From assembly GCA_025357945.1 (NCBI GenBank), contig JANYLJ010000055.1:775-64774 (forward strand): 64,000 bases of DNA, read 5' to 3'. Of the stretch, positions 15,186-61,452 are shown one piece after another (the first letter of the stretch is position 1; every line of letters starts with the position of its first letter). Below the pieces are notes generated by a model that did not search any database, was not told the DNA's origin, and worked only from the letters and a program-made list of their open reading frames with translations. The position numbers were made by a program, and so were the translations under genes. The DNA is from Gemmatimonadota bacterium (GTDB lineage Bacteria > Gemmatimonadota > Gemmatimonadetes > Gemmatimonadales > GWC2-71-9).

Positions 15186-15189
15186 ACGG

Positions 15190-15918: not shown

Positions 15919-15947
15919 GCTGTAAGGTAGAGCCGTGGGCTGTCGGT

Positions 15948-19133: not shown

Positions 19134-19134
19134 A

Positions 19135-19770
19135 TCACGCCTTCGCGGCGGCGACCGCGCGAGGCATGGCATGCGTCGCGCGGACGGCACGGCGCCGCCG
19201 ATGGTTCGTGAGCAGTGCTCCCGTGGCGAGCAGAAACCCGGCGCCCAGGGCGATCGCACCCGTGCCTGGCAGCGATGTGGCGGTGAAGTTGAGTAGTTGC
19301 TTACTGCCGAGGAGCGGTGGTTCGTAGTTCATCCCCGGCACGACAATGATGGCATTCTCGGCATCGAGGTCATGGCCGTACTCATATTCCCAGCGGTGGA
19401 AGTCCCACAGGCCGATCCCGCCGATCAGGGCAAAACCCGCCAGCCACGCGACAACCGACCGGCGCGATCCGCGCCAGGCCGCGGCGATGCCGCCGACCAT
19501 CAACCCGACGACAATCCACGGCATCCAGCGCAACTCCGGGATCGCGTCGGGCAGAATCGGTTTCATGCCGATGTAATGGTTCAATCCGTTGATGCTCTGC
19601 AGGTCGTTGGGCTTGATCCCCACCACGGTGTTCACGTGGATCCGCAGCCCGAGGCCCTCCGGGTACTGCGGCGCAATCAGGCGCACCTCCCAGAGCGGCA
19701 GCAGCAGTGCCCCGCCAACCAGCAGCGATGCCGCCGCCATCAACACGCGCGCCCGGAGCGACATGGTCAC
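19135..19770 (-). CDS. integral membrane protein in the nosB position of clade II nos clusters
   Basis: 211 aa with about 4 TM segments. It lies immediately after nosZ (ATGA overlap) and before nosD. The assignment rests on position only. Confidence 0.5.
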   Translation of the reverse strand: MTMSLRARVLMAAASLLVGGALLLPLWEVRLIAPQYPEGLGLRIHVNTVVGIKPNDLQSINGLNHYIGMKPILPDAIPELRWMPWIVVGLMVGGIAAAWRGSRRSVVAWLAGFALIGGIGLWDFHRWEYEYGHDLDAENAIIVVPGMNYEPPLLGSKQLLNFTATSLPGTGAIALGAGFLLATGALLTNHRRRRAVRATHAMPRAVAAAKA

Positions 19771-21788
19771 CGCATTCCCGTCATCTGGTCATGCCTGGCG
19801 GGCACAACCAGGGCACCCTTGCGCGCTTCCTGCGTCTTGGCGCGCGCCGACATGTTGGCCTTGAGGGGCACGTTGGCACCGGCAGCACTGACCCGGATGT
19901 ACCCCTGCATCTCCTGGTGCAACGCGCTGCAGAAGTCGGTGCAGTAGAACGGGTAGACACCGGCAGCCTGCGGTACCCACTTGAGCGTGCGCGTTTCACC
20001 CGGCAGCAGGATCAGGTTCGCGGTATTCATGCCCAGCACCGCGAATCCGTGCACGATGTCCCAGTCCTGTTCGATGTTGGTGATATGGAAGTACACGGTG
20101 TCGCCCACCAGCACCCCTTCGAGGTTGTCCGGCGTGAAGTGACTGCGCATCGCGATCATCTTGATATGGACCGCCTTGCCCTTCCGCTCGATGCCGCCCT
20201 CGGCTTCCGACCGTGTGACGTACGGATTGCCGTTGTTCGCCAGCGTGAAGAACTTGACCTGCTTGTCCCGGATCATCGCCGCCGGCAGTGCTTGCGCGTA
20301 ATGCGGTTCACCGGTCGTGGGGAAGTCGAGCAGCAGCTTCATCTTGTCGCCGCTGATGTCGATGAGCTGCGCCGATTGCGCCAGCTCGGGCCCGGTCGGC
20401 AGGTAACGGTCCTTGGTGATCTTGTCCAACGCCAGGAGGTACTTGCCCCACGGCTGCTTCGAGTCGCCACCGGGGATCATCAGGTGGCCGATCGAGTAGT
20501 ACACCGGAATCCGGTCCACCACCTCCCAGGTGCCGAGCTTCCACTTCACCACTTCCGACGAAATGAACATCGACGTGTAGGCGTATCCCTTGCCGTCGAA
20601 CTCCGTGTGCAGGGGCCCAAGGCCCGGCTTCTGAACCTCACCCACCATCACGGCTTCGTACTTGAGAATTGGAATGCCCGAGAGCTCGCCGTCGAAGGCC
20701 TTGTCGGCGATCGCCTTCTGCAGCTTGGTGAAGGAGTGCACGGGAATCACGGTGGCGAGTTTGCCGCCGCCGACGATGTACTCACCCGTGGGATCCACAT
20801 CAACGCCATGCGGCGACTTGGGCGTCGGGATGAAGTACACCACACCCGGGCAGTTCGCCGGGTCGAGTATCAGGACGCTCGTCTTCCGCTCACTGGTCGC
20901 AATGCGCGTCCGCTCATCGGTAACATTGTGCAGGTACGCCGACGGCGTGGCCTTGGCCTTGCCGTCCTTGACACACTGCTCGGCGAGCTTCCAGTGCACC
21001 GCGGCGATGAAGTCCTTGTCGTTCTTTGACGCGTTCACCTCGAGCTTGGTGTACGCCTGCTCGGTGTCATAGCTGGTGAAGAAGAACCAGCCGTCGGACG
21101 GGCCCTTCCCGGCATGGCCGAGGTCGTAGTCGTATCCCGGCATCAGGATCTGGAAGGCAATGTCCATCTTGCCCGGCTGGTCGGCCCGGATGAAGGATAT
21201 GGTGCCCTTGAAGCGCGCCTTGAAGTCCTCGATTGGCGTGTCGGTGTTCGGGATCGGGACGGAGAAGCGGGTTGCCGACACGACATACTCCGAGTTGGGT
21301 GTCGTGAACGGCGAGGCATGACCGCCGGCGGAATTGGGGATCTGGATGATCTCGTCGGTCTCGAACCTCGTGAGGTCGATCCGGGCGATCCGGGGCGTGT
21401 TGTTGCCGTTGATGAAGAGCCAGCGTCCGTCGGGCACGCCATTGGTCTGCGACAGTTCCGTGTGATGCGTATCGTCCCATGGGATCTCACCGAACGTGGT
21501 CTGCAGCATCGCCCGGGTTTCCTGGGTGTAGCCGTAGCCGTTCTCGGGGAACTGGGAAAACACCGGAATGATCTTGAGCATGCGTCCGGACGGCAGGCCG
21601 TACACGGAGACGTTGCCGCTGTAGCCGCCCGACAGGAAGGCGTAGAACTCATCGTAGTGGCCGGGAGCAACGTACACCTTGCTCGCCGCGTCACCGCTGA
21701 CGAGTTGCTGGGGCGTCGACGTGCGGCACGCCGCTGCGAACGTGACCGCCAGGAGCGCTGCGATGAATCGGATGGTGCGATACGGCAT
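19767..21788 (-). CDS. nosZ: nitrous-oxide reductase NosZ, Sec-type (clade II-like)
   Basis: Beta-propeller body plus the C-terminal CuA motif CTDFCSALHQEM. The N-terminus MPYRTIRFIAALLAVTFAAAC has no twin-arginine motif. The start is at the ATG at 21788. Confidence 0.92.
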   Translation of the reverse strand: MPYRTIRFIAALLAVTFAAACRTSTPQQLVSGDAASKVYVAPGHYDEFYAFLSGGYSGNVSVYGLPSGRMLKIIPVFSQFPENGYGYTQETRAMLQTTFGEIPWDDTHHTELSQTNGVPDGRWLFINGNNTPRIARIDLTRFETDEIIQIPNSAGGHASPFTTPNSEYVVSATRFSVPIPNTDTPIEDFKARFKGTISFIRADQPGKMDIAFQILMPGYDYDLGHAGKGPSDGWFFFTSYDTEQAYTKLEVNASKNDKDFIAAVHWKLAEQCVKDGKAKATPSAYLHNVTDERTRIATSERKTSVLILDPANCPGVVYFIPTPKSPHGVDVDPTGEYIVGGGKLATVIPVHSFTKLQKAIADKAFDGELSGIPILKYEAVMVGEVQKPGLGPLHTEFDGKGYAYTSMFISSEVVKWKLGTWEVVDRIPVYYSIGHLMIPGGDSKQPWGKYLLALDKITKDRYLPTGPELAQSAQLIDISGDKMKLLLDFPTTGEPHYAQALPAAMIRDKQVKFFTLANNGNPYVTRSEAEGGIERKGKAVHIKMIAMRSHFTPDNLEGVLVGDTVYFHITNIEQDWDIVHGFAVLGMNTANLILLPGETRTLKWVPQAAGVYPFYCTDFCSALHQEMQGYIRVSAAGANVPLKANMSARAKTQEARKGALVVPARHDQMTGMR

Positions 21789-21914
21789 GCCTGCCTCGTG
21801 CGATTGGGCCCTCACGGGGCCAGTTGTGGCGCGGCAACCGGTTTCGCCGCGCACCGTGCCGCACCGCCATCGCGGGGGCACATCACCATTCTCGCTGGTG
21901 CCGCGGTCCGGCAC

Positions 21915-21930: not shown

Positions 21931-21995
21931 GGAGCTGGCGCCCCAGAGGCACGAGCGAAGATCACCGGCGCCGCATGAAGGCGGGTTGAACACCA

Positions 21996-22013
21996 GATGA
22001 AGCGTTCTTCATC
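21996..22013. terminator. 18-bp perfect palindrome GATGAAG-CGTT-CTTCATC (terminator or operator)
   Basis: It lies 17 nt after the stop of the 4-TM gene (22030) and upstream of the nosZ promoter region. There is no U-tract. Confidence 0.35.
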
Positions 22014-22029
22014 GTTGATCGAGCGCGGG

Positions 22030-22494
22030 TCAGCGCGCCGCGGGCCGGTCGGCCACCCGAAGTGGTCGTGTCGAGATCGTCAGGCGAGACGGCGCGACGG
22101 CAGCGTGATCGAGGGTGCGCCAGAGATTCCATGCCAGCGCGTACGCACCGGCGGCACTGAGCGTTCCACCGGCGCCGAGCAGCCAGGCAGCCACGGTCGC
22201 GGTGTGGAATCGGACGATGAACCCCCCGGCCAGCAAGGCGAGGCCGACGTTCGCGGCGACAAAGTGCCACGACGCGAGGCGCGGACTGTGCAGCGGCGTC
22301 GCCGTGAAGCGCGGCATCACGTGGTACGCCACACCGGCGATCATCATCACGACGAATCCCAGCAGCAGCATGTGCAGGTGCGCGGTGCGGTAGATCGTCC
22401 AGGCCGGGTGGACCGCCATCGCGACGCCGAGGGACACGCCGGCCGCGAGCCATGCGAGCGCAGCACGCAGGAAGCGCACGACGTAGCGCTCCAT
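22030..22494 (-). CDS. small 4-TM membrane protein, paralogue A (AHxH motif, haem-copper oxidase subunit I-like segment)
   Basis: 154 aa from MERYVV. TAHLHMLLLGFVVMMIAGVAYHVMPRF aligns with SAHTHLILVGAMLEAIVGTALWLFPRP of the ORF at 24199..24639. The start overlaps the cupin stop (TAATG). Confidence 0.65.
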   Translation of the reverse strand: MERYVVRFLRAALAWLAAGVSLGVAMAVHPAWTIYRTAHLHMLLLGFVVMMIAGVAYHVMPRFTATPLHSPRLASWHFVAANVGLALLAGGFIVRFHTATVAAWLLGAGGTLSAAGAYALAWNLWRTLDHAAVAPSRLTISTRPLRVADRPAAR

Positions 22495-22817
22495 TAGCAA
22501 TGCTCGCAGCAACTGGCGATGAGTTCGACCCGGAGCTCGAGACCGCGGTCCCCGGCGACGACGGAGTGCTCGACGTCGGGGTCGATCTGCACGACCGCGC
22601 CACGAGGGAGGACTCGCATCCCGTCTCCGGCGATCGCGATGTCACCGCTACCGGCCACCGCGGTGATCACGACCCGCGCCGGGTTGCGGTGCGGCGGCAG
22701 CCGTTGACCAGGCTCGAATCGGACCGTGAAATGGCGGCCATGCGCTCCGTGCTCAATCTCGGAAACAACTGGCCGGTGCGTGATCGGTAGCTCGGGGGGA
22801 GAAGATGGTGACGCCAT
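22494..22817 (-). CDS. cupin-domain protein with Cys-rich C-terminus (CCEHC)
   Basis: 107 aa from MASPSS. The cupin motifs are GQRLPPHRNPARVVITAVAGSG and PRGAVVQIDPDVEHSV. Confidence 0.65.
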   Translation of the reverse strand: MASPSSPPELPITHRPVVSEIEHGAHGRHFTVRFEPGQRLPPHRNPARVVITAVAGSGDIAIAGDGMRVLPRGAVVQIDPDVEHSVVAGDRGLELRVELIASCCEHC

Positions 22818-22870: not shown

Positions 22871-22886
22871 TGTGACGCTTGTCACG
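22871..22886 (+). promoter_or_regulatory. candidate Crp/Fnr-family operator (TGTGAC-GCTT-GTCACG) in the divergent cupin/crp promoter region
   Basis: The 6-mer arms are identical to the nosZ and NMO sites. It lies 54 nt from the cupin ATG and about 36 nt before the regulator ATG. Confidence 0.55.
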
Positions 22887-22914: not shown

Positions 22915-23610
22915 ATGGGCGCCTTTACCGCAGTGCTCCGCGCCGTGCCGATCTTCGACGGGCTCGGCGACGCCGTGCTGGAGCGGCTCGCCGCCCGTTG
23001 CGTTCCGCGCGCCGTGGGAGAGGGATTCATGCTCTTCCGCGCTGGCGAACGGTGCGCCGGGCTGTACGTCGTGCTCGAAGGGCGCGTCCGGATCTACCGG
23101 ACGTCGCCGGATGGCCGGGAACAGACGATCGCCGTGGAAGGTCCCGGCCGGCCGGTGGCCGAGTTGCCACTCGTCGATGATGGTCCCTATCCAGCGAGCG
23201 CGGTCACCACGGTGCCAAGCCGGCTGATCTTTCTGCCGCGCGCGGAGTTCGAGCATGCGTTTCGCACCGATCCCGACGTGGCCGCGGCCGTCGTGCGGGC
23301 GCTCGGCGCGCGGTTGCGGCACATGGTGCAGCTGGTGGAGACACTCGCTTTCCGCGATGTCGCCGCGCGGCTCGCGATGCTGCTGGCCGACCACGCCGAG
23401 CGGCACGGCCGGGTGGGAGGCGACGGCGTCGTGCTGGATCTCGACCGCACGCAGGAGGAGTTGGCGGCCGAGATCGGTACGGCCCGGGAATCGGTGTCGC
23501 GGGCGCTAAAGCAGTTGAAGGCGCACGGCTTGATCAGGAAGCGAACCGGGATGCACTTGCTGCTGGCACCGGCGGAACAACTGCGCGCGTGGGCGCGCGG
23601 CGGTGGATGA
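22915..23610 (+). CDS. Crp/Fnr-family transcriptional regulator (no FNR-type Cys cluster)
   Basis: cNMP-binding-like N-terminal domain (VPIFDGLGDAVLERLA...LFRAGE) and a C-terminal HTH (ELAAEIGTARESVSRALKQL). The start is taken at the ATG at 22915; the ORF is open from the TTG at 22879. Confidence 0.85.
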   Translation: MGAFTAVLRAVPIFDGLGDAVLERLAARCVPRAVGEGFMLFRAGERCAGLYVVLEGRVRIYRTSPDGREQTIAVEGPGRPVAELPLVDDGPYPASAVTTVPSRLIFLPRAEFEHAFRTDPDVAAAVVRALGARLRHMVQLVETLAFRDVAARLAMLLADHAERHGRVGGDGVVLDLDRTQEELAAEIGTARESVSRALKQLKAHGLIRKRTGMHLLLAPAEQLRAWARGGG

Positions 23611-24197
23611 GACATGCGTCACGGCGCGTCGGGTCGCCGACCGGCGATGTTGGCCAAGTGACCACACCTGGCGATAGCGGCACGGACTCGCTGCCCGACT
23701 TCGATCCCGCAGTCCTCACCGACCTCGACGTGCGCGACGACTTGCGCTCAGGGCGCGAGCCGTTGGCGCGCATTCTTGCCGTAGCCGAGGCCCTCCCGGC
23801 GGCGGGCGTGTTGCACCTGCGCACACCGTTCCAGCCGGCGCCACTTTTCTACGTATTGTCGCAGCGGGGGTTCGCATACCACAGCGAGGCATTTGCCGCC
23901 GATGACTGGTCGTCGTGGTTCTGGCGCAGTGAGTCACCGCCGGCGCCGGCCCCGCCGGTGAGTGCGCTGGCGGCCGCGTTGGCGCCGGCGGGCGTGATCG
24001 ACCTGAGGCACTTGCCGCCGCCGGAACCGCTGGTGGCGATTCTGGCGCGGATCACCCGCGATGACGCGCCGTTCGAGGTGATGCTCCCGTTCGATCCACC
24101 GATCCTCGACGTGATGCTGGCGCAGCAGGGATGGCGGGTTGAGCGGATCGGCACGAGCGCTGACAGTGCGCGCCTGAGGATCGTGCGCGAGCAGTGA
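23607..24197 (+). CDS. protein with two tandem DUF2249-like domains
   Basis: LDVRDDLRSGREPLARILAVAEALPAAGVLHLRTPFQPAPLFYVL and IDLRHLPPPEPLVAILARITRDDAPFEVMLPFDPPIL match the pattern I recall for DUF2249. ATGA overlap with the regulator gene. Confidence 0.6.
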   Translation: MRHASRRVGSPTGDVGQVTTPGDSGTDSLPDFDPAVLTDLDVRDDLRSGREPLARILAVAEALPAAGVLHLRTPFQPAPLFYVLSQRGFAYHSEAFAADDWSSWFWRSESPPAPAPPVSALAAALAPAGVIDLRHLPPPEPLVAILARITRDDAPFEVMLPFDPPILDVMLAQQGWRVERIGTSADSARLRIVREQ

Positions 24198-38828: not shown

Positions 38829-40777
38829 CGGCAGCGACACCGGACGAGGCGCTCCGCGCCTGGTTCCTCGGACCCCGCGCTGAAAATGCGGAACTGTTCG
38901 AGCGGCTGATTCTCGAATCGCTGCGCGATCACATCTTCTGGCGAAGGAACCATCATCCGGAAGACGGGTTCACCATCCATGAGGCGGATCGTCGGCGGGC
39001 TGGCTACGACGACGCGATCGCCCGGTTGACCGAAGAGCTGCAGGGGCTCCTCGCGGCACTGAAGCGGGACGTCCCGTTTTTCAGCGGCCGGTATCAGGGC
39101 CACATGGTCGGTGAGCAGACCATCGCGGCCCAGATCGGGTACTTCGCCGCGATGCTCTACAACCCCAACAACGTGACGGAGGAAGTGTCGCCCGTCACGA
39201 CCCGCCTGGAACTCGAAGTGGCGACCCAGCTCGCGGCGATGATCGGCTACGCCCCGGAGCGCGCCTGGGGCCATCTCTGCTCCGGCGGGACCATCGCGAA
39301 TTTCGAGGCGCTCTGGATCGCGCGTGGCGTGCGATATCTCCCGGTGGCGCTCGCGCTCGCGGCGCGCGATCTCGGCGTGCCGCTCGCCGTCCGCTCGCTG
39401 GACGGTCGCCCGATCGACATCCGCTCGCAATCGCTCTGGGCGTTGCTAAATCTTGAACCGGATGCCACCCTCGATGCCTATCACCTGCTCCATGAGTCCG
39501 CGCCGGGCGGCGATGTGGTCGCCGCACTCGATGCGCACTCTCTCTCGACGATCGGGTATCAGGACTACACTCGTCGCCTTGTCGCCGCGTTCGGTGACCC
39601 GTTGCCCGCCGGCGTGGTGCTCGTGCCGGCGACGGCGCACTATTCGTGGGAGAAGATCGTCCGCGCGCTCGGGATCGGCGCGCAACGAATGATTACCGTA
39701 CCGGTGGACGGCTCGTGCCGGATCGACCCGGACGCGCTCTGGCAGGAGCTGACACGCTGCGCCACACAGCACACGCCGGTTCTGGCGGTGGTGAGCGTTT
39801 GCGGCACGACCGAGGAGGGCGCGATCGATCGCCTGGATCTCGTTGTTGCCGCGCGGGACCGAGCGGCCCGCGAACTGGGGCTCACATTTCACCTGCATTC
39901 GGACGCGTGCTACGGCGGCTACGCGGCCGCGGTCACGCGGGCGCCGGCCGGACGGCGCCTGAGCGCCGAGGAGATTCGCGGCGCGCATGGTTTCGACTGG
40001 CCTGCGCCGGAATGGGTGACGGCGATCGAGGCGCTTGCCCAGGCCGATTCGGTCACGATCGACCCGCACAAGCTCGGGTACGTCCCCTACCCCGCGGGTG
40101 CCCTGCTGATCCGCGACCGCCGCGCGCGGGCGCTGGTCTCACTTGATCCACCGTATCTGACGCCACCCGGTGCGGGCCCATCGCAGGATGAGCGCTTCAT
40201 CGGCCGATGGATTCTCGAAGGTTCGAAGCCCGGTGCGGCGGCGGCCTCGGTCTGGCTCACTCATCGGGTGATCCCGCTCGACGAACGCGGGTACGGCCAT
40301 ATCATCGCCCGCACCGTTCGCGGGGCGCATCGGTTTCATGCCGCGCTGGAAGGCAACGCACTCGCACCGTTCAGCGCGCTCCGTTTCCCCCGCCCGGACT
40401 TGAACATCGTCAACTGGATCGTGACGCACCCCTCGGTCACTGACCTCGATTCACTCAATGCGCTGAACGAAGGAATTTACGCGCGGCTCAGTCCCGCCGC
40501 GGACGATCCAGCGTATTTCATCACGCGCACGCGGATCCGCTCGCCGGCGTACGACGGTGCGGTGCTGCCGCTGCTCGCGAAACTGGGTGTCAACGAAGCG
40601 ATGTGGCGACGTGACGGACTGGTGGTGCTGCGCGCGGTAGTCATGGATCCATTCTTCGACGGCGGGCCCCGGATGCCCGATCACGTCGCGGGCTTGGTCA
40701 CGGCACTCCAGGCCGCCGCGACGGAAGCCCTTGCAACGGGATTGCAGCCGTCGCGCGCCACTACGAGGTTGGTGTGA
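38825..40777 (+). CDS. group II pyridoxal-phosphate-dependent decarboxylase (large, tyrosine-decarboxylase-like)
   Basis: PLP-lysine motif SVTIDPHKLGYVPYPAG. The N-terminal FLGPRAENAELFERL...WRRNHHPED resembles bacterial TyrDC-type enzymes. Confidence 0.8.
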   Translation: MTAATPDEALRAWFLGPRAENAELFERLILESLRDHIFWRRNHHPEDGFTIHEADRRRAGYDDAIARLTEELQGLLAALKRDVPFFSGRYQGHMVGEQTIAAQIGYFAAMLYNPNNVTEEVSPVTTRLELEVATQLAAMIGYAPERAWGHLCSGGTIANFEALWIARGVRYLPVALALAARDLGVPLAVRSLDGRPIDIRSQSLWALLNLEPDATLDAYHLLHESAPGGDVVAALDAHSLSTIGYQDYTRRLVAAFGDPLPAGVVLVPATAHYSWEKIVRALGIGAQRMITVPVDGSCRIDPDALWQELTRCATQHTPVLAVVSVCGTTEEGAIDRLDLVVAARDRAARELGLTFHLHSDACYGGYAAAVTRAPAGRRLSAEEIRGAHGFDWPAPEWVTAIEALAQADSVTIDPHKLGYVPYPAGALLIRDRRARALVSLDPPYLTPPGAGPSQDERFIGRWILEGSKPGAAAASVWLTHRVIPLDERGYGHIIARTVRGAHRFHAALEGNALAPFSALRFPRPDLNIVNWIVTHPSVTDLDSLNALNEGIYARLSPAADDPAYFITRTRIRSPAYDGAVLPLLAKLGVNEAMWRRDGLVVLRAVVMDPFFDGGPRMPDHVAGLVTALQAAATEALATGLQPSRATTRLV

Positions 40778-40787
40778 ACCGACGGCG

Positions 40788-40803
40788 TGTGACAATCGTC
40801 ACG
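40788..40803 (+). promoter_or_regulatory. candidate Crp/Fnr-family operator (TGTGAC-AATC-GTCACG) upstream of the NMO-like gene
   Basis: It sits in the 49-nt gap after the decarboxylase stop, with its centre about 31 nt before the ATG at 40827. The 22 nt at 40788..40809 are identical to 21930..21909 read on the minus strand. Confidence 0.55.
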
Positions 40804-40826
40804 GTGCCGCGGCGGCTGCCACCGCC

Positions 40827-42281
40827 ATGATGCGACGAACCTTGAAGGGGAGCGTCCCGATCGCAATCTCCACCGCTCCACTGCCGCTGATCGTCCAGGG
40901 CGGCATGGGTGTCGCCGTCTCCGACTGGCGCCTCGCCCGCGCCGTGTCGCGCCGGGGACAGCTGGGCGTCGTTTCGGGAACCGGTCTCGACACCGTGTTC
41001 GTACGGCGACTGCAGGACGGCGATCACGATGGTGCGCTTCGTCGCGCCATGGACGCATTCCCGATGCCGGGTGTCGCAGCGCGCGCAATCGCGCGATACT
41101 TCCGGCCACGCGGCCGGGCGAGCGACGAGCCGTACCAGCTGCTGCCGATGTACCGGCGAGCGGCGAGCAAGGAGCGCGAAGCGCTCACGATGCTCGCCGC
41201 GTTCTGCGAGGTGTATCTCGCCCGGGAGGGCCATCAAGGATCGGTCGGGATCAACCTGCTCACCAAGGTGCAGCGGCCGAATCTCGCAACCCTGTATGGC
41301 GCCATGCTCGCCGGCGTGGGCTACGTGCTGATGGGTGCCGGCATTCCGCGCGAGATCCCCGCGGTCCTCGATGCCCTGACGCATCACTGCACCGCATCGC
41401 TGCGACTGGACGCCGTGGGGCTCCCGCCGGGCGCGGCGCCCGAGATCACGCTCAACCCGGCCGATTACTGGCGCGATCCGCCGGCGCTCGAGCGGCCCAG
41501 GTTTCTCCCGATCGTCGCGAGCAACTCGCTGGCGGCGATGTTGGCGCACAAGCTGGGCGCGGGCGTCGACGGTTTCGTGATCGAGGGTCCGACGGCCGGC
41601 GGCCACAATGCGCCGCCCCGCGGTACCCCCCAGTTCAACACCCGCGGCGAACCCGTGTACGGATCGCGCGACGACGTCGATCTCGCCCGCATCCGCGAGC
41701 TCGGCCTGCCCTTCTGGCTGGCGGGCGGGATGGGGCATCCGGAGCAGCTGCGCCGCGCCCGGGCCGACGGCGCAGCAGGCATTCAGGTCGGGACGCTGTT
41801 CGCGTTCTGCGATGAATCCGGGGTGACGGCCGACCTCAAGCAGTCCGTCCTGGCCAGTGCAGCACGCGGCGCGGTAGACGTGATTACCGATCCACTGGCC
41901 TCACCAACGGGCTATCCGTTCAAGGTCGTCGACTGGAGCGGCGCCCCGGTAGCGCAGAAATCGCGTGAGCGCATCTGCGACATGGGCTACCTGCGCGTCG
42001 CGTACGTGCGGCCGGACGGCGGGATCGGCTATCGCTGCGCCGCGGAACCAGTGGACGCGTATGTGGCGAAAGGCGGCGACGTCAACGACACCGTGGGTCG
42101 CCGTTGCCTGTGTAACGCGTTGATGGCGAACGTCGGCCTGGCGCAGTTACGTGAGCATGGTCAACACGAACCGCCCCTGCTCACCAGCGGTGACGACCTC
42201 AGGACGATTGCCGATTTTCTGCATGGGCGCACCCACTACTCCGCCGATGATGTCATTGACTACCTCCTAGCCGAATCATGA
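40827..42281 (+). CDS. nitronate monooxygenase / 2-nitropropane dioxygenase-family FMN enzyme (long form)
   Basis: LIVQGGMGVAVS and GFVIEGPTAGGHNAP, followed by FWLAGGMG. The start is at the ATG at 40827 (MMRRTLKG). Confidence 0.75.
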   Translation: MMRRTLKGSVPIAISTAPLPLIVQGGMGVAVSDWRLARAVSRRGQLGVVSGTGLDTVFVRRLQDGDHDGALRRAMDAFPMPGVAARAIARYFRPRGRASDEPYQLLPMYRRAASKEREALTMLAAFCEVYLAREGHQGSVGINLLTKVQRPNLATLYGAMLAGVGYVLMGAGIPREIPAVLDALTHHCTASLRLDAVGLPPGAAPEITLNPADYWRDPPALERPRFLPIVASNSLAAMLAHKLGAGVDGFVIEGPTAGGHNAPPRGTPQFNTRGEPVYGSRDDVDLARIRELGLPFWLAGGMGHPEQLRRARADGAAGIQVGTLFAFCDESGVTADLKQSVLASAARGAVDVITDPLASPTGYPFKVVDWSGAPVAQKSRERICDMGYLRVAYVRPDGGIGYRCAAEPVDAYVAKGGDVNDTVGRRCLCNALMANVGLAQLREHGQHEPPLLTSGDDLRTIADFLHGRTHYSADDVIDYLLAES

Positions 42282-44116
42282 TCCGGCGCACCGCGCCCAC
42301 CACCATGCTGCTTCGCGTCGGCGCCGCCGCAGCGTTCCTCGCCGTCGGCGCCGCGGTACGATTTGGCGGGCACGACCCGGTTACGGCCGACGCGATCTGG
42401 CGGTGGGGACTGGGACTGCTCGGCGGGATCGTGGTGGTGCGCACGCTTATCAGCGTCGCCGCCGGACGCCTTGCCGCGGACGTCATCGCGTCCTTCGCGA
42501 TCATCGGCGCATTCGCGCTCGACCAATCGTTCGCGGGCCTCGTCATCGTCGTGATGCAGACGGGCGGCGAAGCACTGGAGCTCATCGCCGAAGGGCGTGC
42601 GTCACGTGCGCTACGCGACCTCGAAAAGGCAGCGCCGCGCTGGGCCCACCGGCTACATGACGACGCGGTGACGGACATCACGGTCGACACGATCATCGTC
42701 GGCGACATGCTGCTCGTCCGGCCGGGCGAGATGATCCCGTGCGACGCGACCGTGACCGCCGGGCAGTCACACGTCGACGCATCGACGCTGACCGGAGAAC
42801 CGGTCCCCGTCAGTACCCGACCCGGCGTGCGGCTCATGAGCGGAGCACTCAACCTCGAGGGTCCGCTGACGCTACGGGCAACGGCGCTGGCGGCGGAAAG
42901 TCAGTATCACCGGATCGTCGAGCTGGTCCGCAGTGCCCAGGCGAGCAAAGCGCCGCTCCAACGACTGGCCGATCGTTACGCGATCTGGTTCACGCCACTC
43001 ACCCTCGCCATTTGCGTCGGGACCTTCCTGGTGGCGCGGGATCCGGTGCGGGTCCTCGCCGTCCTGGTCGTGGCGACGCCGTGTCCACTCATTCTCGCCA
43101 CACCAATCGCGATCGTCGCCGGGATCAACCAGATGGCGAAACGTCATGTCGTGATCCGTCGCGGCAGCGCGCTCGAACAGATGGGACACGTCACCACCGT
43201 GGTATTCGACAAGACCGGCACGTTGACCCTCGGCCGGCCGCAGGTCGCGAAGGTCACGCCGGCAACGGGGCGGGATACCGCCGACGTCCTCCGCCTTGCC
43301 GCCGCGGTGGAGCAGGGTTCCGGGCACCTGCTCGCGCGCACCCTGGTCGAGGCGGCGGCGCGCGGCGGGCTGCCATCACCACCGGCGGAGGACGTCGTGG
43401 AAACGCCCGGCGCGGGCGTCACCGGTCGGGTGGAAGGGCGCACGGTTCGCGTCGGCGCACTCAGTTACATCACCGCAACGCAGCCGGCGTTGAGCGCGGA
43501 GTTCCTGAAGTTGTCCGGCGACAGCCTCGGGTTGCGCGCTTTTGTCGCGATCGACGGGCACGCCGCGGCTGTTGTCGACTACGCCGATCGTCCGCGCACC
43601 GGCATGTCGCGCTTTCTCGACCGCCTGCGCCACGCCGGCGTCCGGCGCATTCTGGTCGTGAGCGGGGACGCCCAGGCGAACGTCGATGCGATTGCCGACG
43701 CGATCGGCATCGACGAGGCCCACGGCGACCTGCTCCCGGAGGACAAGGTGGCGGTGATCGAGACGCTGATGCGAAACGGTGAACACGTGATCATGCTGGG
43801 CGACGGCACCAACGACGCGCCGGCGCTGAGCGCGGCAACGGTCGGCGTCGCGCTATCGGTGGGCGGCAGCGGTATCACCGCGGAGGCGGCGGACGCCGTC
43901 ATCCTCGGCGATGATCCGTCACGACTCGCGGATGCCATTGAAATCAGCCGGCGCACCATGCGTATCGCGCGGCAGAGCATCTGGGGCGGTCTGGTGCTCA
44001 GCGGCATCGCGATCGGGTTCGCCATGTTCGGGATGATCCCGCCGGCGGTTGGCGCGATCCTGCAGGAAACCATCGATGTCGCGGTGATCGTCAATGCGCT
44101 GCGGGCGGCGCGGTAG
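42278..44116 (+). CDS. heavy-metal P1B-type ATPase with a TPCP transmembrane motif, no N-terminal metal-binding domain
   Basis: Motifs DKTGTLT, GDGTNDAP and TGE (LTGEP), plus the TM motif VVATPCPLILATP (PCP instead of CPC). ATGA overlap with the NMO-like gene. Confidence 0.85.
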   Translation: MIRRTAPTTMLLRVGAAAAFLAVGAAVRFGGHDPVTADAIWRWGLGLLGGIVVVRTLISVAAGRLAADVIASFAIIGAFALDQSFAGLVIVVMQTGGEALELIAEGRASRALRDLEKAAPRWAHRLHDDAVTDITVDTIIVGDMLLVRPGEMIPCDATVTAGQSHVDASTLTGEPVPVSTRPGVRLMSGALNLEGPLTLRATALAAESQYHRIVELVRSAQASKAPLQRLADRYAIWFTPLTLAICVGTFLVARDPVRVLAVLVVATPCPLILATPIAIVAGINQMAKRHVVIRRGSALEQMGHVTTVVFDKTGTLTLGRPQVAKVTPATGRDTADVLRLAAAVEQGSGHLLARTLVEAAARGGLPSPPAEDVVETPGAGVTGRVEGRTVRVGALSYITATQPALSAEFLKLSGDSLGLRAFVAIDGHAAAVVDYADRPRTGMSRFLDRLRHAGVRRILVVSGDAQANVDAIADAIGIDEAHGDLLPEDKVAVIETLMRNGEHVIMLGDGTNDAPALSAATVGVALSVGGSGITAEAADAVILGDDPSRLADAIEISRRTMRIARQSIWGGLVLSGIAIGFAMFGMIPPAVGAILQETIDVAVIVNALRAAR

Positions 44117-44307
44117 GTCGCGCCAAGCCCTTGACGTCCCGACCCCGATCATGAAAATCAGATGAAGAGACCTTTATCCGACGGCAATTACCGCTTTGGA
44201 TTTGTATATGTACGGAGCGTAATATTGCGTAGTTCCGCGTCGGGCTCCCACCCCGCACGCTGTCATTGGATCGTCGTGCCAGACCTGACGAGAAGGGGGC
44301 ATCCAGT

Positions 44308-45903
44308 ATGTCGTGCGCGTCCCAATTACCAACCGAATCGCGAACCGAAGCCATCCCGCGCCGCCAACGGGTCGTCGCTGCCGCCGCGTTCGCGCTGCTG
44401 CTGGCCGCCTGCGGGACCAGCGAGATCATCTACCGCGACCGGCTACCGTTCAACGCAGCGCCCGATGCCGTGAGCGGATTGCTCGGCTACTATACGGTCA
44501 ACACCAAGCAGACGACCTGCGGCAACTGTCACGCCGGACATCAGGCGGACTGGTCGTCGACCAAGCACGCTGGCGCGTTCCAGACTCTCGCGGCCAGCGG
44601 ACACGCCACAGCGGCGTGCTACGCCTGCCATACGGTGAATGAGCGTGGCAACGGCCTGGCGGCGCCCGCGGGGTGGAACGCCAAGGCCGACTCGGCGTAC
44701 CAGGACGTCCAGTGCGAGAGCTGCCACGGGCCGGGCACCAAGCACGTTGCCCTCCCGGATACCCGCGCCAACTGGCCGCTGGCGCGCCTGACCCTCACCA
44801 ACGCCAGCAAGAGTTGCGCATCGTGCCACACCGGCACGCACACGCCGTTCGCCGAACAGTGGGCCGCCTCCGGTCACGCGCTGATCATCACCGATGCGGT
44901 CAACAACAGCAACGCGGCATGCAAGAACTGCCACGACGGCAAGACGGTGCTCAAGGCGTGGGGCGTCACCACCAACTATCAGGAACGCGACTCGACTGGC
45001 TTTTCGGCGACCACCTGCGCCGTCTGCCACAATCCGCATGGCTCCACCAACGACCACCAGCTCCGGTTCCCGATCAACACGCCGGATCCGGACCAGAACC
45101 TTTGCATGAAGTGCCACCTGCGCCGGGGTGAACCGGTGGCTGGCGGGTACGGGACCTCGCCCCACGCCCCGCAGGGCTTTGTCCTCCTCGGGATCGGCGG
45201 GTATCGCCCGGCCGGGGTGACCATCGACACCTTGATCACGCTGACTACGCACGCATCGCTCGCCAATCCGAAGCTCTGCGCCGGCTGCCACGTCCAGGCC
45301 TTCGACGTGACCGATCCCGCCACCGGCAGCTTCGTCTTCCACTCGACGGGCCACCTGTTCAAGGCGATCCCTTGCTTCGACGCCGCCGGCAAGCCGACGG
45401 CCGACACCACCTGTGCCTTCTCGCCGCCGGCCCGCAGCTTCAAGTCGTGCCTGGGTTCGGGGTGTCATGCGAACGAGGCGATCGCCGCGGGCCGCCTGGC
45501 CGGGATTCGGGCCGACCTGAAGACGCTGGCCGACCAGATCTGGATCGACCTGAATCGCAACGGGGTGATCGACGCCGCGCCGACAGACGCCGGCTACCTC
45601 GCGATCATCAAGCGCGACCGGCCGACCGAGTTGTCGACCAACACCGCGGTGACCCCAGCACTCGGCGCCAAGTTCAACGTCTTCACCTTTGGTGAGGGCC
45701 GTTACGCCAATGGCGACAAATCGCGCGGCGTGCACAACCCGTTCCTCGCCCGCGCGCTTCTGGCGGCGAACATCACCGAACTGCGCACCGTCTACGCCTT
45801 GCCTGCGCCGCCGGCCCAGGTCCAGGCAGCGGTCGACAAGGCGATCGGGGACGCCCAAGCGCGTCAGCCGAAGTTCATTCGCGCAGCAGCGACCGTGAAG
45901 TAG
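44308..45903 (+). CDS. multihaem c-type cytochrome lipoprotein (8 CxxCH + 1 CxxxxCH)
   Basis: CGNCH, CYACH, CESCH, CASCH, CKNCH, CAVCH, CMKCH, CAGCH and CLGSGCH. Lipobox LLLAACG. The start is the ATG at 44308, after AGAAGGGGG. Confidence 0.85.
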   Translation: MSCASQLPTESRTEAIPRRQRVVAAAAFALLLAACGTSEIIYRDRLPFNAAPDAVSGLLGYYTVNTKQTTCGNCHAGHQADWSSTKHAGAFQTLAASGHATAACYACHTVNERGNGLAAPAGWNAKADSAYQDVQCESCHGPGTKHVALPDTRANWPLARLTLTNASKSCASCHTGTHTPFAEQWAASGHALIITDAVNNSNAACKNCHDGKTVLKAWGVTTNYQERDSTGFSATTCAVCHNPHGSTNDHQLRFPINTPDPDQNLCMKCHLRRGEPVAGGYGTSPHAPQGFVLLGIGGYRPAGVTIDTLITLTTHASLANPKLCAGCHVQAFDVTDPATGSFVFHSTGHLFKAIPCFDAAGKPTADTTCAFSPPARSFKSCLGSGCHANEAIAAGRLAGIRADLKTLADQIWIDLNRNGVIDAAPTDAGYLAIIKRDRPTELSTNTAVTPALGAKFNVFTFGEGRYANGDKSRGVHNPFLARALLAANITELRTVYALPAPPAQVQAAVDKAIGDAQARQPKFIRAAATVK

Positions 45904-45913
45904 GTTCTCCAGG

Positions 45914-47923
45914 GTGACTGGCCCCCTGATCGCCCAGGTCGCTCAGCAACCCCCCGGTGCCACCAAGGCAACGGGGGATTCGCTGTTGCATGGGCTGGAT
46001 ACCCTCGCTGGCGCCGCAACGAGTCTTCGCGACACGCTATCCCAGGCGCCGCTGCCCCGCGGTGTTGCGACCTTCGTGCGCTTCCTGTTTCAGGTGCCAC
46101 AATGGCTACAGAAAGCGGGAGTGGTAGTCGCAGCGATCGTGGCGCTGGCCATCGTCATCACCCTCTGGCGCCGGCGGATCGCGCTGTGGACCTGGTTGCG
46201 GACACGCACCAATTACCTGAAGCTCGTCCTGGGGGGTGCCGCCGTGTTCGTCCTGGCGGTGGTCCTGTTCGGCGGGATGACGAGTTGGAACTACATGCAG
46301 CGCGACAACGGCTTCTGCACCGGCTGCCACATCATGGAACGGCCGTTCCAGCGGTTCAACGCCGGTGCCGGCAAGCATGAAGAGCTCAAGTGCCACGACT
46401 GCCACCAGCAGTCGATCTGGGCGAGCACGCGGCAGCTGGTGCTCTGGGTAGCCGACCGCCCGGAAAAGATCGGTGTGCATGCCCCGGTCCCGAACGGTCG
46501 CTGCGAATCGTGCCATCAACTCGCGGGCGGGCGCAAGCCGTGGCAGCACGCGCTCTTCCTTGCCGGCCACAAGCTGCACTTCGAATCGGACTCGACGCCG
46601 TTGCAGCACCTGTCGTGCGCCAAATGTCATGGTGCCGAGATCCACCGCTTCGTTCCCTCCGCGGGAGCGTGCCAGCAAAGCGGCTGCCATGAAAATCAGA
46701 AGGTCCGCCTTGTGGCGATGGCGAAGCTACCCGAAATCAAGTGCGTCACCTGCCACGCATTCACCGCCGATCTTCCGGCGCTGGCGAGCCGCGATTCCGC
46801 AGTGCGCGCGCTGGTCCCGTCTCAGCGCCAGTGCTTCAGTTGCCATGGTATGAAGGGCAAGCCATCCGGTTACATCGCCGAAAGGGACCCGCACAACGGA
46901 TCGTGCGGCTCCTGCCATGATGTGCACAAGGACTCGCTGCCCACCGACGCACGCGCACGATGCACGGCGTGTCACAAGAATCCTGCTCGCAGCGCGTTTC
47001 ACACCGGCGCCAACCACAAGCGCGTCCAGGCGCAGTGCCTGCTTTGTCACCAGCCGCACGCCTCGTCGGTCGATGCCTCCGATTGCGTCACGTGTCACAC
47101 GGCGGTGCAGAAGCGCGGACGGTTCCGTCCGCCGCTCCCGTTTGACACCAACGCGGTGCTCCGCCGCCGCATCGGCGGTGCCGCGACGCCATCACCGCTT
47201 CATCAGGAGGATGAGCCGGTGTCGGATCATCGCGGCAAGGGCGATGCGTTGCCGGAGGACCCGCCGCCACCGCGAACGCCTCCCGGTCCCGTTGCCAGCC
47301 TTCCCGCAGACTCCTTTCCCCACAGCCGTCACACGTCGCTTCCCTGCCTCACCTGTCATGCCGTGAACACGTCGCGGCGCTTGGTATTCGAGGCACCCCG
47401 CGGATGTGACCTCTGCCATCATCAGTCGTTGATTGCCGGCACCGTGAGTGCGGCCGACTGCACCCGGTGTCACGATGCTGCGAAGCTGGCGACACCTCGA
47501 CCGATGAAGGTGCAAGTGAGTCGGCCAAGAAACCGTCCACTCGCGCGGCCGATCGCGTTCCGTCACGACGTCCATCGAGCAACGTCATGCGGTACCTGCC
47601 ACCAGGCGCCGAACACCGCCCCACCTGACAGTGTGCGTACCTGTCAGGCGTGTCATGATCAGCACCACACGGCACAGCGGACCTGTCTGGCGTGCCACAG
47701 TCGAGCCGAGACGCCCGCGGCACATTCACGCGCGACCCACGTCGGTTGCGATGAGTGTCACACGCCGTCGCGGATCGCTGAGCTGACACCGAGCCGGACG
47801 TTCTGCATCACGTGCCACGCTGCGCAGCAGGCGCACCAGCCGGCGCGCGAGTGCACGACCTGTCATTTCCTCGCGACGCCGGAGCAATTCCGGCCTCGCC
47901 TGATCAAGGCTGGCACTGGATGA
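45914..47923 (+). CDS. membrane-anchored multihaem cytochrome, NapC/NirT/NrfH-like N-terminus plus long haem array (19 CxxCH + 1 CxxxxCH)
   Basis: LVLGGAAVFVLAVVLFGGMTSWNYMQRDNGFCTGCHIMERP is the NapC/NrfH-type anchor and first haem. Twenty haem motifs were counted. The true start is uncertain (see finding). Confidence 0.8.
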   Translation: MTGPLIAQVAQQPPGATKATGDSLLHGLDTLAGAATSLRDTLSQAPLPRGVATFVRFLFQVPQWLQKAGVVVAAIVALAIVITLWRRRIALWTWLRTRTNYLKLVLGGAAVFVLAVVLFGGMTSWNYMQRDNGFCTGCHIMERPFQRFNAGAGKHEELKCHDCHQQSIWASTRQLVLWVADRPEKIGVHAPVPNGRCESCHQLAGGRKPWQHALFLAGHKLHFESDSTPLQHLSCAKCHGAEIHRFVPSAGACQQSGCHENQKVRLVAMAKLPEIKCVTCHAFTADLPALASRDSAVRALVPSQRQCFSCHGMKGKPSGYIAERDPHNGSCGSCHDVHKDSLPTDARARCTACHKNPARSAFHTGANHKRVQAQCLLCHQPHASSVDASDCVTCHTAVQKRGRFRPPLPFDTNAVLRRRIGGAATPSPLHQEDEPVSDHRGKGDALPEDPPPPRTPPGPVASLPADSFPHSRHTSLPCLTCHAVNTSRRLVFEAPRGCDLCHHQSLIAGTVSAADCTRCHDAAKLATPRPMKVQVSRPRNRPLARPIAFRHDVHRATSCGTCHQAPNTAPPDSVRTCQACHDQHHTAQRTCLACHSRAETPAAHSRATHVGCDECHTPSRIAELTPSRTFCITCHAAQQAHQPARECTTCHFLATPEQFRPRLIKAGTG

Positions 47924-49416
47924 GGCGTACCGGGCGAGCCCTTCTGATCGCCGGCGCGGCGTCGCTGGCGGCCGTGCGAGTTCCGGCGCAGTCGTGGCGG
48001 CTGCGCGTCGACGCCGCGGCGCAGCGGGTCGAGTTTCGCGGCGTCACCGCCGACAGCGTCCGCGAAGCCGCCGTGCGCGTCGGCGCTTCTGGTGGATTGG
48101 AGAGCCCGGACGGGTTCGCTGTCGATTGCGTCGGCGACGGGTTCTGCCGGTTCTTTCGCCCAGGGGCGGTTCGTGCCGGCTTGCCAACCAGCGCCGGTGT
48201 GGACCTGACGCTCTGGGGACTCGGGCTACCAGGATTGAGCGTGCGGGTCAACGCGCGCGCCCTCACCGACCTGACCGGTGACCGGGTCTGGCCCGGGACG
48301 TCGCCGCCGCTCCGCCTCGTCGAAGGCTACGCGGAATACTTGCGCGACGGCCTGACGGTGCAGGCCGGCCGGATGATCGAGCGAGGGCGCTTGGCGAGCA
48401 CGGGAACCAGCGGACTCGACGGCGCACGTACGATGTGGCGGTCTGATCGTACCGGCATCGAAGTCGGTGGCTACGCCGGCTGGGGCATGGCGCGTGGCAC
48501 CATCCTGTCGGTCACCAGCCCAGCGGTCGATCCACTCGCCGACTATCAGCCTGCCACCCGCCAGATCGTCGTGGGTGCGCTCGCCGGCGCGCACTTGCGA
48601 GCGGTTGACGTGCAGGCCGAGTACCGGCGCGAGCTGGATCCGGTCACCGACTATATCGTCGCTGAGCGCGCCGCCGTGAGCGTACAGGCGACGCCTGAAC
48701 GGCGGGTCCGATTCGTGGCCGGCGCTGATTACGACCTCGCCCAGGGGGCGTGGGGCAGCGCCGAGGCATCGGCCAGCTACATCGGAGCGCATGTGTCGGG
48801 CAGCATCACCGCACGGCACTATCGCCCGTTCTTCGACCTGTGGACGGTGTGGGGCGTCTTCAGCCCGGTGCCGTTCAACGGAGTCGGCGGTTCGATCAGC
48901 GTGAATCCGACGGCGAAGCTGCAAGTCCGCTCGCGGGCGGAATGGTTCCGCTATGACGCGGCCGATGTCAGCACGCCCACCGTCATCCTGAAAGACCGGG
49001 GTTGGCGCTGGGCGCTGGAGGGTACGCTCTCGCCAGCGGAACGATGGACGCTGGAACTCGACACGCACGGCGAGCTGCTGCCCGGCGCCTCGTCGAGCGG
49101 CATTGATGGCCGGGTCACCTGGCGTCCGCAGCCGGCGCTCGACCTTTCGCTCAACGGCGGCAACCTCGCACGACCCTTGGAACTGCGCTTCCAGGATGCC
49201 GGTGTGACCTACGCTGGCGCCTCGGCCGCCTACCGTGTTGGCGAGCGGTGGCGACTCGACGTGGCGGTCGACCGATATTGGGAATCGCGGGACCGGCCGG
49301 ACGCGGCTGCGTTCGACTGGAACCAGTGGCGCCTGAGCGCGCGCGCGTCGCTCACCCTCCGCTCAGTGGCTGATCGCTGGCTCCCCCCGGCGCGGCCGCA
49401 GGTGCCGTCGCCGTGA
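47920..49416 (+). CDS. putative outer-membrane beta-barrel protein embedded in the cytochrome operon
   Basis: Signal peptide MRRTGRALLIAGAASLAAVRVPAQS followed by about 20 alternating-polarity strands rich in G/Y/R/D turns. ATGA overlap upstream and GTGA overlap downstream. Confidence 0.6.
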   Translation: MRRTGRALLIAGAASLAAVRVPAQSWRLRVDAAAQRVEFRGVTADSVREAAVRVGASGGLESPDGFAVDCVGDGFCRFFRPGAVRAGLPTSAGVDLTLWGLGLPGLSVRVNARALTDLTGDRVWPGTSPPLRLVEGYAEYLRDGLTVQAGRMIERGRLASTGTSGLDGARTMWRSDRTGIEVGGYAGWGMARGTILSVTSPAVDPLADYQPATRQIVVGALAGAHLRAVDVQAEYRRELDPVTDYIVAERAAVSVQATPERRVRFVAGADYDLAQGAWGSAEASASYIGAHVSGSITARHYRPFFDLWTVWGVFSPVPFNGVGGSISVNPTAKLQVRSRAEWFRYDAADVSTPTVILKDRGWRWALEGTLSPAERWTLELDTHGELLPGASSSGIDGRVTWRPQPALDLSLNGGNLARPLELRFQDAGVTYAGASAAYRVGERWRLDVAVDRYWESRDRPDAAAFDWNQWRLSARASLTLRSVADRWLPPARPQVPSP

Positions 49417-52776: not shown

Positions 52777-52832
52777 TACCCGCCGAACCGTGAAGAGTTG
52801 GTGAGGTGACGATGAAGGTTTGTTCAGGCGGG

Positions 52833-53516: not shown

Positions 53517-53573
53517 GGCAACATGCTACGCTCGGGTACCATAACGCTCCATGAATCGAGCATTAAGAAGTCT

Positions 53574-54830: not shown

Positions 54831-54886
54831 GGCATGAAAGGTAAGCCCGGGGCTGCGGTCATCCCGAGCGCCCTTACCTTTTCCCC

Positions 54887-57337: not shown

Positions 57338-59812
<2,475 letters not shown>

Positions 59813-61434: not shown

Positions 61435-61452
61435 TTGTGAAAATAGTCACAA
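61435..61452. promoter_or_regulatory. 18-bp perfect palindrome TTGTGA-N6-TCACAA (CRP-consensus-like) upstream of atpA
   Basis: Its centre lies about 52 nt upstream of the atpA ATG, within a locally AT-rich stretch that carries a direct AAATAGT repeat. Confidence 0.45.

Follow-up and report, generated by a model that had tools for sequence, protein, structure and literature searches.

A CRP-type box shared with nosZ marks a candidate internal promoter before an NMO-like flavoenzyme and P1B-type ATPase gene pair in a Gemmatimonadota bacterium

Results

The nosZ 22-mer recurs before an NMO-like gene

In a stretch of 64,000 nucleotides (nt) from an uncultured Gemmatimonadota bacterium (assembly GCA_025357945.1, contig JANYLJ010000055.1; the whole stretch is hereafter called the window), we found that a 22-mer upstream of the nitrous oxide reductase gene nosZ recurs, letter for letter, in front of a gene for a nitronate monooxygenase-like (NMO-like) flavoenzyme, which is followed by a gene for a P1B-type ATPase. 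On balance we lean towards the reading that the 22-mer is the binding site of the CRP-family regulator encoded at 22915-23610, or of a close paralogue, which would place the NMO-like and ATPase genes under the same regulator as nosZ in this lineage. The link is lineage-specific and is supported in silico. What the sequence itself shows are the sites with their statistics and conservation, the steady distance from box to -10-like hexamer and the CRP-type recognition helix; that this very protein binds there, that it activates and does not repress, where transcription starts, that translation begins at TTG and what the signal might be are inferred.

The window holds two exact copies of the 22-mer TGTGACAATCGTCACGGTGCCG, at 40788-40809 (+) and at 21909-21930 (-); no third copy was found there even when up to three mismatches were allowed, and 100 shuffles gave 0 matches by chance. 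The pair is also the sole perfect repeat of at least 18 nt that joins distant places of the window, and the DNA flanking the two copies could not be aligned on either side. As a first-pass annotation of this DNA had claimed, the plus-strand copy is the exact nosZ 22-mer and sits in the 49-nt gap between the stop codon of a pyridoxal phosphate (PLP) decarboxylase gene (TGA 40775-40777) and the annotated ATG of the NMO-like gene (40827). Its first 16 nt (40788-40803, TGTGACAATCGTCACG) form a CRP-type box centred at 40795.5, that is, 31.5 nt before this ATG, in agreement with the earlier figure of about 31 nt. The core is the palindrome TGTGAC-N4-GTCACG, whose symmetric part is GTGAC-N4-GTCAC, and the last 6 nt, GTGCCG, make up a conserved 3' extension. 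At the second copy, the box is centred at 21922.5, 134.5 nt before the nosZ ATG (21788). This nosZ gene (19767..21788, -) encodes a Sec-dependent clade II N2O reductase (TIGR04246, 933.5 bits against a cut-off of 625); the Tat-type NosZ model scored 358.8, below its own cut-off.

CRP-type boxes and the candidate regulator

When at most one mismatch was allowed, TGTGA-N6-TCACA matched five places in the window against 1.23 expected, a count reached in 0 of 100 shuffles. Four of these five matches lie in 5' regions and the fifth (47747-47762) is a coding artefact, encoding C-D-E-C-H. At three mismatches, the number of boxes was at chance level (24 found, 24.8 expected), and many of the matches at up to two mismatches fall in multihaem cytochrome genes and are likewise CxxCH coding artefacts. 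The codons of this haem motif (TGY-N6-TGY-CAY) mimic a half-site throughout the multihaem cytochrome genes (window 44266-50873; 13500-20000 in the related locus L001), and any genome-wide scan for the CRP-type box will need to mask them.

Two further boxes flank the gene of the presumed binder. This Crp/Fnr-family regulator gene (22915..23610, +; 231 residues; Pfam cNMP_binding and HTH_Crp_2) lies 1 kb from nosZ. The box TGTGACGCTTGTCACG (22871..22886, no strand assigned) occupies the divergent gap between the regulator gene and a cupin/COX1-like operon (22817..22030, -), and is kept in L001 and in L106-L109. The box TGAGACATGCGTCACG (23608..23623, +) overlaps the regulator stop codon, is conserved in all six relatives, and would drive genes for a DUF2249 protein, a small membrane protein and a Cu-nitrite-reductase-like oxidase. 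Both of these units, predicted to be box-controlled, contain a small membrane protein with weak COX1 matches (a fragment of haem-copper oxidase subunit I), at 22030-22512 (-) after the cupin gene and at 24199-24639 (+) after the DUF2249 gene, and both proteins are kept in relatives. A perfect box, TGTGACTATTTTCACA (61436..61451, -), is found 52.5 nt upstream of the ATG of atpA, a gene of a split atpA-G-D cluster that has an AraC-like gene in front of it. We found no -10 element at class II spacing from the atpA box; its AT-rich centre is itself -10-like, and the regulator might repress that ATP synthase unit.

The closest solved relative of the regulator is Mycobacterium tuberculosis CRP (E=4e-29), which binds TGTGA-N6-TCACA-type sites. 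The helix TARESVSRAL of the regulator aligns with ASRETVNKAL of the M. tuberculosis protein, the recognition helices being RESVSR and RETVNK, and the helix pattern R-E-x-x-x-R/K reads GTGA half-sites. An FNR-type N-terminal Cys cluster was not found in the regulator. In the phosphate-binding cassette (residues ~88-95), the regulator has GPYPASA where M. tuberculosis CRP has GPRTSSA; because the Arg that binds the cyclic phosphate in CRP is replaced by Tyr, cAMP is probably not the ligand.

A shared class II promoter geometry

At 19 boxes from seven genomes, we scored as -10-like any hexamer whose second letter is A and whose sixth is T, provided that it starts 29.5 or 30.5 nt past the box centre on the downstream side. 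Eighteen of the 19 boxes, which represent four promoters and their homologues, have such a hexamer, compared to 6% of random positions, and the box-to-hexamer spacing is alike at the NMO-like, nosZ, cupin and DUF2249 promoters. At the NMO-like gene the hexamer is CATGAT (40826..40831, +), 30.5 nt downstream of the box centre and overlapping the annotated ATGATG, with CAGAAT in L001 and TGcGATATT in L102 at the same offset. The predicted nosZ promoter has GAGAAT (21888..21893, -) 29.5 nt from the box centre, matched at the same offset by GAGAAT in L106 and GAAAAT in L001. Across genomes, the cupin promoter shows CATCAT, CACTAT or GATCAT (CATCAT stands at class II spacing on the cupin side of 22871-22886), and the DUF2249 promoter GATGTT, GAAGTT, AACATT and others. 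This spacing would put the box at about -41.5 to -42.5 from the predicted transcription starts, which is the position of a class II activator.

The DUF2249 gene offered an independent check of the promoter model. Its start codon (GTG or ATG) follows the hexamer by exactly 6 nt in five genomes, the window and L106-L109, and thus coincides with the predicted transcription start, so that the mRNA would be leaderless.

In the mechanism that we propose, a regulator dimer would sit on TGTGAC-N4-GTCACG, ~41-42 bp upstream of the transcription start, and recruit RNA polymerase to the weak -10 element CATGAT (40826-40831), so that the short stretch behind the PLP decarboxylase gene would act as an internal promoter. 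Transcription would start at ~40837-40840, translation of the NMO-like protein would most likely begin at TTG 40842 on a nearly leaderless mRNA, and the P1B-5-like ATPase would be co-translated through an ATGA overlap. Since the same arrangement of the box recurs at the nosZ, cupin/COX1-like, DUF2249/Cu-oxidase and NMO-like units, all four should respond to the signal of the regulator. The earlier suggestion of either a repressor-like placement or a very short leader therefore stands in its second half, as a very short leader fits this promoter; the geometry, being that of a class II activator, speaks against a repressor operator.

The start of the NMO-like gene

The annotated start of the NMO-like gene (ATG 40827) is probably wrong. 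A transcript from the CATGAT promoter would begin near 40837-40840, and the annotated ATGATG would therefore be unusable; the next in-frame start codon past it is TTG 40842. When N-termini were aligned, the homologues from L083 and L102 had their ATG starts at exactly this TTG codon. We therefore take 40842..42281 (+) as the probable extent of the gene, which would be read from a nearly leaderless mRNA. In L083 and L102 an AT-rich -10 element (TATTAA and TATTAT) lies 5-7 nt before the NMO-like ATG, close enough that these mRNAs would again be leaderless, and more distant Gemmatimonadota have CATATA-N6-ATG at the NMO-like gene.

Conservation among relatives

Searches with the NMO-like protein and with the regulator returned homologues overwhelmingly from metagenome-assembled genomes of Gemmatimonadota. 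On the syntenic contigs among them, identities to the window proteins were 79% for both the NMO-like protein and the regulator in L001, and 85% and 87%, respectively, in L106. The NMO-like protein was 82-83% identical in L101/L102, 81% in L083 and 75% in L105, loci from which the regulator was not recovered; in L107, L108 and L109 the regulator is present among other neighbours. A metagenome scan with the NMO-like protein added one close relative only, L083.

The boxes differ in how well they are kept. The cupin and DUF2249 boxes were found in every relative examined, and with the window in all seven genomes. The nosZ box is kept in three of four loci, namely the window, L001 (at the same 134.5-nt distance) and L106 (21 of 22 nt identical, including the conserved sequence TGTGACAATCGTCACGGTGCC), and is absent in L109. 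The NMO-like box is intact only in the window and in the syntenic L001 (TGTGACAACGGTCACG, with at most one mismatch), where it overlaps the decarboxylase stop codon. In L101/L102 it is half-decayed (TGCGGCGATCGTCACGGTGCCGCG): in L102 the upstream half-site is eroded, and the -10 element, an extended TGcGATATT, is a better one. In L083, where the box is missing, the -10 element reads TATTAA. The decay of a half-site together with a better -10 element in L102, and TATTAA in L083, are as expected of an activator-dependent promoter that turns constitutive. L102 shares GGTGCCGCG with the NMO-like site of the window, from which it follows that this site was inherited within the clade and did not arise lately as a copy of the nosZ site. 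The GGTGCC extension, too, recurs beyond the window: it follows the nosZ box of L106 and the NMO sites of L102, where the box itself has decayed, and of L083.

We also asked how widely the gene pair and its site occur. The NMO-ATPase pair is confined to a small clade comprising the window, L001, L083, L101/L102 and L106, and a P-type ATPase adjoined the NMO-like gene in none of 80 GTDB reference loci (within 4 kb, E<1e-10). A general NMO-ATPase operon is ruled out by this count and by clustering of neighbours, which gave no partner conserved across phyla. Across phyla, only 15 of 82 loci had a match to TGTGA-N6-TCACA upstream of the NMO-like gene at up to two mismatches, and these matches, L001 apart, were weak or belonged to a different, Acidobacteriaceae-specific sequence. 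The check proposed by the first-pass annotation, whether NMO-ATPase pairs elsewhere carry the same site, thus gave a divided answer: the site is intact in L001, decayed in L101/L102 and absent in L083, L105 and L106, and the genes are not paired in the 80 references.

Points against co-regulation, and other explanations

Several observations weigh against common control by the regulator through this box. The lack of the NMO-like box in L083 and L105 is one, and its lack in L106 is another, as L106 is the closest non-identical relative and there the decarboxylase stop and the NMO-like start overlap as ATGA. Given that the box is missing from L106, L083 and L105, the predicted internal promoter is dispensable and evolutionarily labile, and the box-less genomes must make do with read-through from upstream. 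The 19 boxes of the hexamer test amount to only four independent promoters, the window and its relatives being homologous, and the -10-like hexamers are weak, with 3-4 of 6 matches. The predicted transcription start leaves TTG 40842 as the sole in-frame start, with an unusual leader of 2-5 nt, and L001 has no clean start codon at the equivalent place. A symmetric dimer site does not account for the identity of the 6 nt past the palindrome (GTGCCG, about -33 to -27). Finally, the protein that binds the box could be a different Crp/Fnr paralogue, encoded at another place in the genome.

Among the other explanations, the one that fares best is that the regulator acts at the same box as a repressor or roadblock, blocking either read-through or an overlapped promoter, in which case expression of the NMO-like and ATPase genes would be inverse to, or independent of, that of nosZ. 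The box centre lies only 31.5 nt (window) or 34.5 nt (L001) before the annotated ATG, there is no terminator between the decarboxylase and NMO-like genes, and L106 shows that these two genes can be co-transcribed and translationally coupled. Members of the Crp/Fnr family often repress at promoter-overlapping sites, and the atpA box, which lacks class II geometry, covers an AT-rich -10-like stretch. However, the distance from box to hexamer equals that at nosZ, cupin and DUF2249; it is constant between the window and L001, whereas the distance to the annotated ATG shifts by 3 nt, and the N-termini of the homologues argue against this ATG being the start at all. We therefore regard repression as unlikely.

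It is also conceivable that the site is a relic, a promoter module once copied or inherited that no longer contributes in the window, so that its identity with the nosZ copy reflects history. Loss or decay of the box in L083, L101/L102, L105 and L106 points to weak selection across the clade, and the NMO-like gene of other Gemmatimonadota uses a different upstream element. Against this, the window and L001, at 79% protein identity, both keep the box to within one mismatch, with a hexamer at the same offset, in intergenic DNA that is otherwise unalignable, and a neutral 16-mer would not be expected to survive such divergence. We judge a relic to be quite improbable.

Least credible, and largely refuted, is a dispersed repeat (REP/MITE-like, that is, resembling repetitive extragenic palindromes or miniature inverted-repeat transposable elements) or an RNA-level element such as a decarboxylase terminator hairpin or a 5' untranslated structure: the palindrome can form a 6-bp hairpin, lengthened by CGGC/GCCG pairing, but its folding energy is ordinary (z = -0.44), the extended hairpin does not form at the nosZ copy, no T-run was found at the 22-mer, no Rfam match in the whole window, no terminator or full sigma-70 consensus at 40500-41000, and no longer repeat family in the window. 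Membership of a dispersed repeat had been named beforehand as one result that would overturn the regulatory reading, and two copies with unrelated flanks are not such a repeat.

The two proteins and the extent of the transcription unit

The NMO-like protein (484 residues from the annotated start) scored 59.3 bits against Pfam NMO (PF03060; cut-off 28), a match that covers residues 238-344 and only part of the profile. Its score for the FabK equivalog model was 46.7 bits, far from the cut-off of 453, and NMO and FabK sequences of the PDB matched it only at E ~1e-6. An AlphaFold model of the protein (mean predicted local distance difference test, pLDDT, 81; predicted template modelling score, pTM, 0.87) was closest, by Foldseek, to Helicobacter pylori FabX (E=1.8e-12, template modelling (TM) scores 0.52/0.68, 17% identity), and matches to FabX and FabK had 14-19% identity. 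Four Cys are invariant in the family, C384, C404, C427 and C429, all in the C-terminal part, and the protein may carry a metal or Fe-S centre there besides flavin mononucleotide (FMN). The name 'nitronate monooxygenase' is not justified for it. The family to which it belongs spans Gemmatimonadota, Acidobacteriota, Chloroflexota, Deinococcota and Planctomycetota at 57-85% identity, and no neighbouring gene is conserved along with it.

The ATPase gene (42278..44116, +) encodes a P1B-type protein of 612 residues with a TPCP motif, P1B-5-like in type. It scored 512.6 bits against TIGR01525 (cut-off 346) and has the motifs VVATPCPLILATP (containing TPCP), FDKTGT and GDGTNDAP. The PCP signature is one that we take to assign the protein to the P1B-5 subgroup. 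We detected only the domains E1-E2_ATPase and Hydrolase; a hemerythrin-like or other extra domain was not found, and the protein ends 612 residues after its start. PCP has been listed as one of the transmembrane signatures of P1B ATPases (PMC4932525).

The ATGA by which the first-pass annotation took the two genes to be translationally coupled was confirmed: the NMO-like stop and the ATPase start overlap at 42278-42281, and the overlap is also present in L001 and L101. The AT-rich gap of 150 nt that follows the ATPase gene contains a sigma-70-like promoter, TTGACG-16-GAAAAT, at 44131-44158 (+). The multihaem cytochrome cluster downstream is probably a separate transcription unit, and since the cytochromes have a promoter of their own, the predicted unit consists of the NMO-like and ATPase genes.

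Genomic neighbourhood

The NMO-like gene turns up repeatedly within this denitrification neighbourhood or alongside it, a linkage that speaks for the regulon reading: it lies downstream of the regulator in L001, L106 and L109, and in L002 and L103 it adjoins genes for a GAF histidine kinase, an OmpR-type regulator and a Cu-oxidase. In L103 (9845-11400) it stands directly between an Rce1-like gene and the Cu-oxidase gene; in the window (15918-51700) the same flanking genes are ~35 kb apart. The ~35-kb stretch holds the nos cluster, the regulator, stress and two-component genes, the decarboxylase, the ATPase and the multihaem cytochromes, an arrangement which suggests that a nos/hypoxia island was inserted around an ancestral NMO-like locus in the window.

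A second upstream element is shared among these loci, TTCAC-N6-CTTCAT(GCGG), followed after 11 nt by a -10-like hexamer. We found it before the NMO-like gene in many other Gemmatimonadota (…TTCACGATCGCTTCATGCGG…CCATATA-N6-ATG), before nosZ in the window, L001 and L109, and before the Cu-oxidase gene in the window, L002 and L109. Its sites are at 21971-21990 (-) and ~52820-52850 (-) in the window, at 13444 in L002, at 8658 (-) and ~13360 in L109, and upstream of the NMO-like gene in L085, L087-L091 and L103/L104. The 11-bp direct-repeat layout of the element resembles a PhoB/OmpR-type box, and genes for a GAF kinase and an OmpR-type regulator adjoin the genes that it precedes (window 52833-55127). 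Near nosZ the element is accompanied by the palindrome ATGAAGAACGCTTCAT (about 22000-22015). An inverted repeat after the nosZ box, GGTGCCG-N5-CGGCACC, was considered as a further operator and dropped, as it is not kept in L106.

Two repeats were noted elsewhere in the window. One is a 72-nt inverted repeat (56193-56264/56315-56386, 79% complementary, arms 50 nt apart) between a Kdo-transferase gene and the next minus-strand gene; the other is a heptamer tandem repeat, CTCGTCT, of ~8 units (58874-58929) where the ATP synthase gamma and beta genes meet.

Discussion

In soil, Gemmatimonadota form an abundant group of carriers of clade II nosZ, the main biological N2O sink, and in the literature that we searched we found nothing on the regulation of nosZ in this phylum. 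The analysis yields a defined box, a candidate regulator and a promoter model that predicts when these bacteria would express N2O reductase, along with two candidate accessory genes, one for an FMN- and Cys-rich enzyme and one for a P1B-5 pump from a class whose substrates are poorly known. The nitrosative-stress or metal-supply role that had been suggested for the link to the regulon is speculation.

A wider hypothesis may be put forward, which we think unlikely: that a CRP-like regulator that does not bind cAMP runs the Gemmatimonadota clade II nosZ island via mostly leaderless class II promoters, and that in some lineages it has recruited a four-Cys FMN enzyme of FabX-like fold and a P1B-5 pump as accessories of N-oxide respiration. 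If this were true, the accessory roles could lie in the handling of Fe or Ni, or in the repair of metal centres damaged by nitric oxide, and the fact that in this phylum the NMO-like gene is found again and again beside nirK-like oxidases, nosZ and regulators would reflect a real, undescribed enzymatic step.

The proposed mechanism, a class II promoter activated by a Crp/Fnr-family protein, is textbook, and a regulon prediction of this kind is familiar. The window resembles the class II CRP promoters of Escherichia coli CRP, M. tuberculosis CRP (Rv3676) and Corynebacterium GlxR in its 16-bp two-fold symmetric TGTGA-N6-TCACA site, in a regulator that combines a cNMP-binding domain with a helix-turn-helix whose recognition helix reads R-E-x-V-x-R/K, and in the placement of the site ~41.5 bp upstream of the predicted start, over the -35 region and with a weak -10 element. 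It differs in the GPYPASA cassette of the regulator in place of GPRTSSA, in targets that belong to denitrification and hypoxia, in several transcripts that are apparently leaderless, and in its host, an uncultured member of the Gemmatimonadota.

Crp/Fnr activators with palindromes upstream of nos genes are well known, among them FixK2, NNR and DNR and, for clade II, the Nss proteins of Wolinella. The window shares with the FNR/FixK/DNR/NnrR group and the NssR-type nos activators (Bradyrhizobium diazoefficiens FixK2, Wolinella NssA-C) a Crp/Fnr-family protein encoded in or near the denitrification cluster and palindromes upstream of nosZ and accessory genes, clade II nosZ included. Unlike the window regulator, for which the box is of the CRP type (GTGA/TCAC) and which lacks the FNR-type Cys cluster, these activators recognise TTGA-N6-TCAA (PMC11539149). 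Crp/Fnr control of a clade II nosZ has been proposed in Nitrosophilus labii with that same consensus (PMC11539149). Neither an NMO-like enzyme nor a P1B-5-like pump, both part of the predicted regulon, is reported for the regulons of those activators.

A precedent exists for the NMO-like gene as well. In Neisseria gonorrhoeae, the NMO-family gene npd (NGO1024) is induced anaerobically together with aniA and has no known role (PMC3032703). As is predicted for the window, a gene of this family is tied to a denitrification enzyme, there under anaerobiosis, and the physiological substrate of the 2-nitropropane-dioxygenase-like product is unassigned (PMC3032703). The two proteins belong to different subfamilies, that of the window having ~480 residues and four invariant Cys; MtrR is among the regulators listed for npd, and npd has expression evidence, whereas the link in the window comes from sequence. 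Together with the proposal for N. labii, npd makes the earlier claim that co-regulation of this kind had never been described too strong (PMC3032703, PMC11539149).

For the ATPase, the point of reference is Sinorhizobium meliloti Nia (SMa1163), which is summarised in PMC4932525 as the only characterised P1B-5 ATPase, with Ni2+ and Fe2+ proposed for it. The window protein shares with Nia the P1B type, the PCP signature in a transmembrane segment and the lack of a classical N-terminal metal-binding domain. A hemerythrin-like domain at the C terminus occurs in Nia and in many, though not all, P1B-5 members, and such a domain was not detected in the window ATPase. For the NMO-like protein, it is H. 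pylori FabX, an FMN enzyme of the NMO/FabK fold reported to hold an Fe-S centre, that the model matches best, and the four Cys could hold a metal or Fe-S centre in a like manner; the two differ in sequence (17% identity) and in length, the window protein being ~110 residues longer, and the window gene has no fatty-acid-synthesis context. Taken together, what would set the window apart from these precedents is a CRP-type box and recognition helix, a probable loss of cAMP binding, a leaderless architecture, another phylum, and the inclusion of a P1B-5-like pump.

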